Source: an uncultured Candidatus Saccharibacteria bacterium (lineage in GTDB: Bacteria; Patescibacteriota; Saccharimonadia; Saccharimonadales; JACDBH01). Taken from it: DNA of 64,000 bases. Position 1 is the stretch's first letter, and every line of letters begins with the position of its first letter. Positions 4,022 through 5,652 of this stretch are shown one piece after another. A program made the position numbers and the translations under genes. The notes beneath the pieces were generated by a model. That model searched no databases. It saw only the letters and a program-made list of their open reading frames with translations, and was not told where the DNA came from. Location of the stretch: the NCBI GenBank assembly GCA_964641015.1, contig CAZXJN010000003.1:1819-65818 (forward strand). The letters are read 5' to 3'.

Positions 4022-4891
4022 ATGGCTAGTACCCAGCAGCTAAAGCGCCGGATTGGCAGCGTCAAGAATACCAAGCAGATCACTAAAGCTATGGAGCTGG
4101 TTGCCGCCTCTAAAATGCGCAAAGCTACCGAAGCCGCTCATCGTGGTCGCGCCTATCGTCAGGCAGCACACAGCATGCTATCGCGGCTTACTGCGGTCAC
4201 TGAGATTAGCGAGCACCCACTTTACAGAACCCGTCCTATCAAAAAGCGTCTATATATCGTGGTGACCTCGGATCGAGGGCTGGCGGGTGCGTATAACGCC
4301 AATATCATCAAGCTGTTGACCCGTGCCGTTGCGAGTGACCGCAAGGCGGGCATCAAAAGCCAGGTGATTATTATTGGCAAACGCGGTGCACAGTTTTTAC
4401 GGAGAGTTGAGCATATTGACATCATTGCAGCCTATGCTGATTTTGGAGACAAGCCAGACGCGAATGACATTCGCCCTATCCTCGACACGGTCGTTGAGCA
4501 GTATCGAACTGAGGCGACTGACGAAGTTCGCATGCTTTACACCGAGCATAAGTCCAATATTACTCAGACTGCGCAGAGCCTGGCGATTTTGCCTGCTACC
4601 TTTGACGAAGAGCCGGCTGAAGAGCGAGATTTGAGCGATGTGACATTTGAGCCGTCGATTTCTGAAGTGCTCGAAAACGTGACCGAACGCCTGCTCGAGG
4701 TGCAGATTTGGCAAGCACTGCTTGAATCAATCGCTTCAGAACAATCCATGCGTATGCTGAGCATGAAAAACGCGACCGATAATGCGAGTGAGATTATCGA
4801 CGATTTAACCCTGGAGTTCAACACGGCCCGCCAGGCTAAGATTACCCAGGAGCTGGCAGAAATAACCGGTGGAGCGGAGGCAATAAAATGA
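4022..4891 (+). CDS. atpG: F-type ATP synthase F1 subunit gamma
   Basis: The N-terminal signature (IKNTKQITKAMELVAASKMRKA) and the C-terminal signature (ARQAKITQELAEITGGAEA) are canonical for gamma. Confidence 0.9.
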   Translation: MASTQQLKRRIGSVKNTKQITKAMELVAASKMRKATEAAHRGRAYRQAAHSMLSRLTAVTEISEHPLYRTRPIKKRLYIVVTSDRGLAGAYNANIIKLLTRAVASDRKAGIKSQVIIIGKRGAQFLRRVEHIDIIAAYADFGDKPDANDIRPILDTVVEQYRTEATDEVRMLYTEHKSNITQTAQSLAILPATFDEEPAEERDLSDVTFEPSISEVLENVTERLLEVQIWQALLESIASEQSMRMLSMKNATDNASEIIDDLTLEFNTARQAKITQELAEITGGAEAIK

Positions 4892-5181
4892 GTCTAGACA
4901 GTCAATTTAACGAAGCTCTTGTTCAGGTGCATGAAGCCTTTCCTACTTTGCATGACGAATGGGGTTTAATTAACGGGGCACAAGCCGATTCATACAGCAG
5001 TCTGCTTGAAGAGGTTTGGCGCATCGGCGCAGCTCAGAGCCCTACCGAATCTCTGACAGAGGTCATGCAGAGTCATGGTTTTGACTACGAGACGGGCCAG
5101 GGCCAAGTAGTTAAGATTATGTCGGAAATAGTGCTTGGAGTAAGCGCAAGGGTGCATTCCGTAGAAGGAGCGGTAAAATGA
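4888..5181 (+). CDS. Small acidic hypothetical protein (97 aa) embedded between atpG and atpD
   Basis: Its ATG overlaps the atpG stop (ATGA at 4888-4891), and its own stop overlaps the next ORF's start. I recognise no family. Confidence 0.5.
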   Translation: MSLDSQFNEALVQVHEAFPTLHDEWGLINGAQADSYSSLLEEVWRIGAAQSPTESLTEVMQSHGFDYETGQGQVVKIMSEIVLGVSARVHSVEGAVK

Positions 5182-5384
5182 GTGAAGTGATTGGCAAATT
5201 CCCTTCTGTAGACAAGATTCAAAAGCAAGTCGACAATGTGATTGATTATAAGAAAGCCCAGGACCGTCTGAGCAGCGCGGCAATTATTACTGCTTTTAGA
5301 ACTTCAGTCAAACAAGACGCTTTGGGTCTTGTTGGCTCTGATATAAATACTTCGGACTGGGATGGTGGAGATGCAGATGAGTGA
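5178..5384 (+). CDS. Small acidic hypothetical protein (68 aa) in the atp operon
   Basis: ATGA overlap at 5178-5181 with the preceding ORF. It overlaps the next ORF by 8 nt if that ORF starts at 5377. Confidence 0.45.
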   Translation: MSEVIGKFPSVDKIQKQVDNVIDYKKAQDRLSSAAIITAFRTSVKQDALGLVGSDINTSDWDGGDADE

Positions 5385-5652
5385 GAATGCTCGGACTCAC
5401 GAAGACAAACTGCCGTATGAGGCTACCGCAGAGCATTTGGCACGAGTGGAAGCTGCAAGAATTATCACCAAGCACGGCAATGACCCCGACAGAGTTATGA
5501 AAGCTCTCGAGGCTGATTTAACAGAAGTCATACACGACTCTCTAGAGTTGGGAGCAGAATTAGCAGAGGCAGGCTTTGGGGAGATTTCTCCAGCAGAGCT
5601 GTTAGTAGCTTACGCAGCAGGAGCAAACGAGAATAATAGAGGAGAAGCATAA
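5377..5652 (+). CDS. Small acidic hypothetical protein (91 aa; alternative start 5362) in the atp operon
   Basis: Its stop overlaps the atpD start (TAATG at 5650-5654). The helical, acidic sequence looks coding. Start choice is uncertain (5362, 5371 or 5377). Confidence 0.5.

Follow-up and report, generated by a model that had tools for sequence, protein, structure and literature searches.

The operon for the F1Fo ATP synthase is among the most conserved gene arrays of bacteria, and soluble extra genes between its gamma, beta, and epsilon genes lie, to our knowledge, outside the textbook picture. Here, we describe four such genes, orfA to orfD, in an uncultured Candidatus Saccharibacteria bacterium (NCBI GenBank assembly GCA_964641015.1, contig CAZXJN010000003.1, positions 1,819 to 65,818; this stretch of 64,000 nucleotides is referred to as the window). 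Three of them fill the 760-nt gap (4892-5651) between atpG, which encodes the F1 gamma subunit of 289 amino acids (aa) (4022-4891; Pfam PF00231, ATP-synt, E 2.6e-90), and atpD, which encodes the F1 beta subunit of 464 aa (5652-7046; PF00006, E 8e-72). These are orfA (97 aa, 4888-5181), which comes first, orfB (68 aa, 5178-5384), and orfC (91 aa, 5377-5652), with isoelectric points (pI) of 4.47, 4.53, and 4.58, respectively. An earlier note, made from the sequence alone, had reported three small open reading frames (ORFs) at this place, and both their lengths and their tiling of the gap could be confirmed to the base. It overlooked a fourth small acidic ORF, orfD (66 aa, pI 4.54, 7046-7246), which occupies the junction between atpD and atpC, the gene for the F1 epsilon subunit (141 aa with a GTG start, 7239-7664; PF02823, E 6e-19). 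All of these genes are on the forward strand, and the junctions that hold the extra ORFs are called slots in the following.

From atpG to atpC, seven cistrons are linked by overlapping stop and start codons. The TGA stop of atpG overlaps the ATG of orfA in an ATGA at 4888-4891, a second ATGA joins orfA to orfB at 5178-5181, orfB and orfC share 8 nt (5377-5384), and a TAATG at 5650-5654 leads from orfC into atpD, all as the earlier note had described. Downstream, orfD shares 1 nt with the stop of atpD and 8 nt with atpC, whose GTG start is at 7239. Shine-Dalgarno (SD) sequences on the same strand precede orfA (GGAGG, 4876-4880, within the 3' end of atpG), orfB (AAGGAG, 5165-5170), orfC (GGTGGAG, 5364-5370), atpD (GAGGAG, 5639-5644), and also orfD, each correctly spaced from its start, while the GTG of atpC has no clear SD. 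The SD of each downstream gene is encoded by the C-terminus of the preceding ORF; that of atpD, for example, lies inside the coding sequence for the last residues of orfC (RGEA before the stop). The orfC start is fixed at ATG 5377 by its SD and by a public gene call of 91 aa (P0002); no SD accompanies ATG 5362, a possible alternative start that would give a 96-aa version. A promoter and terminator scan returned neither a forward-strand terminator within the chain nor any surplus of promoters, and an Rfam scan of 3800-7900 returned no family within the chain. The overlapping stop and start codons, together with the SDs, make it most likely that the whole chain is co-transcribed and co-translated with F1.

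According to the ORF list and a Pfam scan, a complete F-type ATP synthase operon spans 1-7664 of the window, with atpB at 208-1038, atpE at 1079-1285, atpF at 1411-1935, atpH at 1947-2354, and atpA at 2358-3914 upstream of atpG.

Coding capacity and families of the slot genes

The four slot ORFs are genuine protein-coding genes. In the gamma|beta slot, 99.6% of the sequence is covered by open runs of 60 codons or more on the same strand. None of 2000 shuffled versions attained this coverage, their mean being 27% and the highest value 97.6%. The codon-usage score of the genome is positive for orfA, orfB, and orfC in the annotated frame and negative in the other five frames, and an SD core motif precedes 102 of 120 slot ORFs (from the survey of related loci described below) compared with 11.6% of random ATGs. 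Together, the shuffle test, the codon-frame test, and the SD sites argue against noncoding sequence or chance ORFs. The same ORF boundaries, with identical or near-identical ORFs, were moreover found in independent assemblies from many samples. Residues of the conserved motifs described below are kept while their codons differ synonymously between genomes, which suggests that selection acts on the protein. In composition, the slot genes have a lower GC content at third codon positions than the atp genes (0.38-0.48 versus 0.51-0.58), and slot ORFs are slightly purine-rich (0.554 versus 0.52-0.53).

All four encode small acidic proteins that are soluble and helical. For the three peptides of the gamma|beta slot, the acidic character and the lack of transmembrane (TM) segments noted earlier are borne out by pI values of 4.47-4.58, net charges of -4 to -11, and a maximum Kyte-Doolittle mean over 19 residues of at most 1.25. 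Their helical appearance agrees with AlphaFold2 models of orfA (four helices; predicted local distance difference test (pLDDT) 73, predicted template modeling score (pTM) 0.61) and orfC (three helices, pLDDT 68.5). The statement that orfA, orfB, and orfC belong to no recognizable family likewise stands, and it extends to orfD: searches of all four against Pfam, NCBIfam, PHROGs, and PADLOC gave no match (E up to 1 for Pfam, NCBIfam, and PADLOC). Foldseek comparison of the orfA and orfC models with the Protein Data Bank (PDB) returned no match with E below 1, and sequence-profile searches of the PDB with the four families returned no relevant or ATP synthase-related chain. Neither do the families resemble each other, as hhalign detected no mutual similarity among them. 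When the four slot-family profiles were compared with alignments of all eight core subunits, hhalign probabilities did not exceed 2.2%, which leads us to reject the idea that the slot genes arose as duplicated atp genes. Some weak matches of the orfC hidden Markov model (HMM) to b-subunit ORFs are compositional (hhalign probability 1.7%). An anti-phage defense component was also considered and rejected, given the lack of any PADLOC model match at E up to 1.

Homologues were found in the same slots of related genomes. They were not readily visible: a first-pass tblastn of orfA to orfD against 80 genome loci gave no match at 1e-3, an all-versus-all phmmer comparison gave mostly singletons, and the families surfaced only once closer relatives were added and HMMs iterated. 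One such case is a sister population (loci L081-L090), in which atpG, atpD, and atpC are 85%, 93%, and 85% identical to those of the window at the amino acid level. In L081, two ORFs of the same lengths as orfB and orfC lie between atpG and atpD (62% and 61% identical, respectively), and a 66-aa ORF between atpD and atpC is 73% identical to orfD; all three have kept their reading frames. The architecture of the window is matched in L181, another Saccharibacteria genome (GCA_964644965.1), where atpG is followed by ORFs of 99, 61, and 99 aa, atpD, a 123-aa orfD homologue (42% identical), and atpC. Together with L101, L181 is the closest relative in the core genes (atpG 90-92% and atpD 95% identical), but the slot proteins of these two genomes are only about 30% identical to those of the window, compared with 61-73% in the more distant L081.

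The families differ in reach. An exhaustive HMMER search of 1.84 billion representative proteins found a single non-self relative of orfA, a 99-aa protein (P0012; 32-33% identity, E 3e-5) encoded in L181 by a gene with its start codon on the stop of atpG, and a word-indexed homologue search with orfA returned only itself; the orfA family is thus known from one further genome. Homologues of orfB are found in the gamma|beta slot of L081, L181 (33%), and L101 (about 30%, with an N-terminal extension). Toward its C-terminus, orfB has a conserved motif, D-A-x-G-L-V-G-S-D-I, and other ORFs that share G-L-V-G-S-D-I were found in this slot alone. The orfC family, for which a word-indexed search yielded one relative of 60% identity, is characterized by an N-terminal (L/I/V)-P-Y-E-x-T-A (hence "PYE" family), a central H-D-x-I-x-x-G, and a C-terminal P…A-Y-x-x-G. 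An iterative HMM search for it converged at nine members. Each of them immediately precedes atpD, and in the genomes concerned the identity of atpG to that of the window ranges over 49-92%. A profile search of 5.8 billion proteins retrieved 10 orfC-family proteins, all unnamed or annotated as "hypothetical". Finally, the orfD family, with the motifs Y-x-P-x(3)-N-L-N-D and, at the C-terminus, ERE-x-LGD, has 10 members, each of them in the beta|epsilon slot. The orfB, orfC, and orfD families are widespread in environmental Saccharibacteria, many of the loci being titled Saccharimonadales, and none of the four families was found at more than one F1 junction.

Occupancy and turnover of the F1 junctions

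Our survey drew on GTDB species representatives and Joint Genome Institute (JGI) metagenomes and covered 160 related loci, in which inserts of at least 100 bp were counted at each junction. In the Saccharibacteria loci (about 150), inserts are present at the alpha|gamma junction in 57 of 141 loci (40%), at gamma|beta in 68 of 119 (57%), and at beta|epsilon in 47 of 100 (47%), compared with a single insert each at b|delta (1/79, 1%) and delta|alpha (1/97, 1%); the spacing of atpB and atpA hardly varies across the surveyed loci. Same-strand ORFs cover 90-100% of the inserts, and most of them begin on the upstream stop codon (ATGA) and have an SD. Between 81 and 84% of the slot ORFs have a pI below 5.5, versus 29% among the window's remaining genes, and essentially none contain TM-like segments. 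By sequence, the 207 slot ORFs form 141 clusters, including 99 singletons. Each cluster with at least three members is limited to one junction, with the sole exception of a four-helix 23S-rRNA-IVP protein, whose occurrence in more than one junction fits a mobile element, not a slot-resident family. The gamma|beta junction is without ORFs in the Bacillota outgroup loci and in a Berkelbacteria locus (L075). Full-text literature searches on Saccharibacteria, Patescibacteria, and atp operons yielded no earlier description of the arrangement, and the interleaving of F1 genes with hypervariable mini-genes is a lineage-wide habit that had apparently not been described before.

A Pfam domain is missing from 143 of 150 slot ORFs. 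Those with a recognizable domain are unrelated to ATP synthase. A histidine phosphatase of 182 aa (His_Phos_1, PF00300, E 6.5e-35) lies exactly between atpG and atpD in two loci (L171, 5370-5915; L172, 1007-1552) of a distant clade, whose atpG is 46% identical to that of the window and in whose sibling contigs (L163-L170) atpG and atpD abut. Proteins of the IVP family PF05635 are found at beta|epsilon in L036 (3963-4337), L049 (3617-4009), and L059 (7432-7800) and at alpha|gamma in L004 (1315-1524) and L150 (491-886). The 23S rRNA IVP/bAvd proteins are small and helical, as are the slot proteins, and share junctions with them in some relatives. An identity of orfA to orfD with these proteins was rejected, as none of the four matches PF05635 or PF22296, and only four plus one of the 150 slot ORFs, all in other genomes, do.

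Evolution of the slot families outpaces that of the core subunits by a factor of 5-15. Their nonsynonymous divergence (dN) amounts to 0.17-1.0 versus 0.05-0.11 in core genes; between the window and L081, orfB, orfC, and orfD have a dN of 0.17-0.31 at a saturated synonymous divergence (dS) above 1.4. Ratios of dN to dS, where computable, are 0.08-0.5, but dS is saturated (>1.4) or incalculable in every comparison. Slot and core divergence are also decoupled: across 55 pairs, identity within the orfC family does not correlate with that of the adjacent atpD (Spearman rho 0.00), and three orfC allele classes (window, L081, and L106; L181 and L003; L101, L053, and L112) cut across the tight core clade formed by the window, L181, L101, and L081. 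Slot variants are probably shuffled between lineages through recombination via the conserved flanking atp genes. Such cassette exchange by homologous recombination in the flanks is the most economical reading of the shuffling, whereas an extreme heterogeneity of rates would be a less economical explanation of the decoupled slot identity.

Ten strain contigs (L091-L100) are near-identical from orfA to atpC, with just three single-nucleotide polymorphisms in the slot, the contigs having been chosen for an identical orfA. Upstream, they diverge in patches by up to 17% per 250 nt, namely in atpG (4250-4750) and in atpA (regions compared: 3000-4000 and 4000-4899), with the last variant at 4899. These patches are mosaic recombination tracts, and in these contigs, preselected on orfA, they extend no further than the atpG/orfA boundary at 4899.

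A further feature is found at the alpha|gamma junction, which is empty in the window. In the 107-nt spacer between atpA and atpG, a CT-rich heptamer tandem repeat (five copies of TTCTCTG, 3969-4004, forward strand) is located just upstream of the atpG SD. In L181, such CT-rich repeats stand on both sides (approximately 3620-3660 and 4085-4125) of an alpha|gamma insert that encodes 38 and 136 aa, while the window has one copy of the repeat. This suggests either repeat-mediated gain and loss of an alpha|gamma cassette or an S1-type translation enhancer. A sub-threshold Rfam match of this spacer (3914-4016) to a microRNA family is an artefact.

Possible accessory factors of F1 or passengers of its operon

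The reading that we favor, if tentatively, is that the slot proteins are dispensable accessory factors that would act on F1 through short conserved motifs. It is suggested by the junction specificity inside the operon, the fidelity of each family to its slot, the obligatory co-translation, and the acidic soluble character that the families have in common. Under this reading, the proteins would act on the F1 sector during its synthesis, possibly as assembly helpers or as modulators of alpha3beta3-gamma-epsilon. They might dock via L-P-Y-E-x-T-A at the N-terminus of orfC, G-L-V-G-S-D-I near the C-terminus of orfB, and Y-x-P..NLND in orfD, while the remainder of each helical scaffold would be free to drift. 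Given their gain, loss, and turnover, we infer that the slot proteins are not stoichiometric core subunits. The earlier proposal of lineage-specific F1 accessory subunits, as opposed to random insertions, is upheld in part. Conserved and coupled genes, a lineage pattern at the F1 junctions, and slot-faithful families speak against random insertions, and an accessory role at F1 is plausible, but the idea of a stoichiometric subunit is contradicted by the absence of orfA from L081 and L101, by empty slots, by an identity of about 30%, and by the unrelated genes in the junctions.

The main rival explanation, which we consider somewhat less likely, is that the slot genes are hitchhikers, or products of a gene nursery: a strongly expressed operon would offer permissive landing or birth sites, in which coupled same-strand ORFs alone survive and whose occupants have functions unrelated or marginal to the ATP synthase and turn over quickly. 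Coupling on the same strand would be required here because it avoids polarity, so that atpD and atpC are still expressed. The large number of singleton clusters, the scarcity of Pfam domains, the low GC at third codon positions, the variable presence among close relatives, and the CT-rich repeats that flank the insert of L181 but are single at the empty junction of the window are all as such an explanation would have it.

Several observations weigh against an action on F1. Among 90 Saccharibacteria loci, 30 have all three junctions empty, and whole slots are empty in many Saccharibacteria, among them one clade (L063-L066 and L163-L170). The presence of a histidine phosphatase and of IVP proteins in the same junctions speaks for sites that are simply permissive. 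Close relatives (L081 and L101) do without orfA, an identity of about 30% is poor for partners of a beta subunit that is 93-95% conserved, and the AlphaFold2 models are moderately confident, generic helix bundles that are uninformative. Lastly, the turnover of orphan genes is not limited to F1, as can be seen from two further ORFs of the window. An acidic ORF of 92 aa (pI 4.5, 58965-59243, reverse strand) without a family but with its own SD, similar to those of the slots, lies between rplK and rplA, and an acidic ORF of 348 aa without a Pfam family (7917-8963, forward strand) follows atpC and precedes an MIP-type gene; its homologue in L081 is 82% identical, while L181 lacks it and has the MIP gene directly after atpC.

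What argues for a role at F1, on the other hand, is that the orfB, orfC, and orfD families have remained faithful to their slots over deep divergence, down to 49% atpG identity, that their motif residues are conserved over varying codons, and that inserts are more than 40-fold in excess at the F1 junctions over b|delta and delta|alpha of the same operon. The acidic soluble character of otherwise unrelated families also suggests a common constraint. In addition, a genome with an insert at one of the three junctions tends to have inserts at the others as well (odds ratios of 3.9-15.6, uncorrected for phylogeny).

Some details of these neighboring loci may be added. The genes rplK (59249-59680) and rplA (57865-58923) are on the reverse strand, and the ORF between them is conserved in two Logan contigs (L185 and L186). 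The L1 ORF of the window has an N-terminal extension of approximately 135-150 aa, its L1 domain starting at residue 154 of 352. The L181 homologue of the MIP-type gene is 84% identical and carries the aquaporin-type domain PF00230. Further along the window, at 15491-24341, ORF sizes and N-termini point to apparent type-II NADH dehydrogenase-like and protoheme farnesyltransferase-like genes and to a four-gene cluster for a terminal oxidase of the cyo type, the latter without interleaved small ORFs. Oxidase genes of the cyo type have been reported in soil bacteria of the candidate phyla radiation (CPR) (PMC8407418).

It is also conceivable, albeit improbable, that the act of translation matters and not its products, in that a relay or reloading of ribosomes sets the gamma:beta:epsilon ratio and keeps the mRNA unstructured and protected. 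The unbroken chain of overlaps that links atpG with atpC, the SDs that precede five of its six downstream starts, their encoding in upstream C-termini, the slight purine richness, and the great freedom in length and sequence would all suit such translated spacers. However, amino acid motifs distant from the junctions have stayed the same despite synonymous changes in their codons, dN is well below a saturated dS, many relatives express the same enzyme from directly abutting genes, and 60-300 codons far exceed what coupling needs.

A noncoding spacer, pseudogene remnants of a single longer gene, or an artefact of assembly is effectively refuted: a single ORF of 250-312 aa does occupy the gamma|beta slot of some relatives, close to the 256 aa to which the three ORFs of the window sum, but the slot ORFs have no similarity to these long proteins, L181 and L081 carry homologous separate ORFs, and the coding tests, the recurrence of identical boundaries in independent assemblies, and the lack of an Rfam match leave no room for the other two.

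Lineage-specific accessory genes inside atp operons are already known; none of the nearest counterparts, described below, is homologous to the slot genes, and each differs from them in location, chemistry, or conservation. AtpI, AtpZ, AtpQ, and AtpR are encoded by small, lineage-restricted, non-core genes that are co-transcribed in F- or N-type atp operons; they are membrane proteins of recognizable Pfam families, encoded at the Fo end beside atpB, and serve in c-ring assembly or ion handling. Like these, orfA to orfD are extra small non-core genes of limited distribution in an atp operon, but their products are soluble and acidic, are encoded between F1 genes, and belong to no family; identity with AtpI, AtpZ, AtpQ, or AtpR was rejected because orfA to orfD lack TM segments (hydropathy of at most 1.25) and match none of the family HMMs.

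A plausible functional analogy is offered by the small inhibitors of F1, which include the C-terminal domain of epsilon, zeta in alphaproteobacteria, IF1 in mitochondria, and AtpTheta in cyanobacteria (PMC9241938, PMC5990651). These are likewise small, helical, and lineage-restricted, while the slot proteins have no sequence or profile similarity to them, vary much more, and are often missing. We know of no case in which zeta, IF1, or AtpTheta is encoded between F1 genes. Dedicated F1 assembly chaperones that are not subunits are also known, namely Atp11, Atp12, and Fmc1 for beta and alpha; they are larger and conserved and show no homology to the slot proteins. By analogy, the placement of orfC directly before atpD would suit a beta-specific helper. 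Zeta/DUF1476, IF1, AtpTheta, Atp11, and Atp12 were all rejected as identities of the slot proteins, there being no Pfam or NCBIfam match at E up to 1 and none among the 150 slot ORFs.

The F1-like ATPase clusters of Mycoplasma comprise alpha-, beta-, gamma-, and epsilon-like genes together with extra genes of unknown function (PMC3369863) and thus provide another case of lineage-specific ORFs associated with F1 genes in a host-dependent bacterium with a small genome. Those clusters are, however, separate and paralogous, and their extra genes are fixed, whereas the cassettes described here are hypervariable and inserted into a genuine F1Fo operon.

In a more far-reaching version of the accessory-factor reading, one that we consider rather unlikely, the slot genes might represent an unrecognized class, present in environmental Saccharibacteria and consisting of several unrelated, slot-specific families of F1-docking mini-proteins that are synthesized in step with alpha, gamma, beta, and epsilon. 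Their motifs would bind nascent or mature F1 and control either its assembly or the direction of synthesis versus hydrolysis, with diverse alleles exchanged like cassettes. If this were true, it would imply diversifying selection on an accessory layer of the ATP synthase in an episymbiotic bacterium.

Within one major CPR lineage, the slot genes are widespread, tied to particular junctions, extremely fast-evolving, and shuffled between lineages. Whichever explanation holds, they provide defined families (orfA to orfD) and motifs for experimental use. If their products do not act on F1, the operon would be a clean natural example of orphan genes that are born or captured and then maintained in an essential, translationally coupled operon. 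If binding to F1 can be shown, the slot proteins would form a new class of ATP synthase accessory proteins, and by acting on F1 they would constitute a new accessory layer in the regulation or assembly of this enzyme in ultra-small episymbionts whose energy metabolism is poorly understood.

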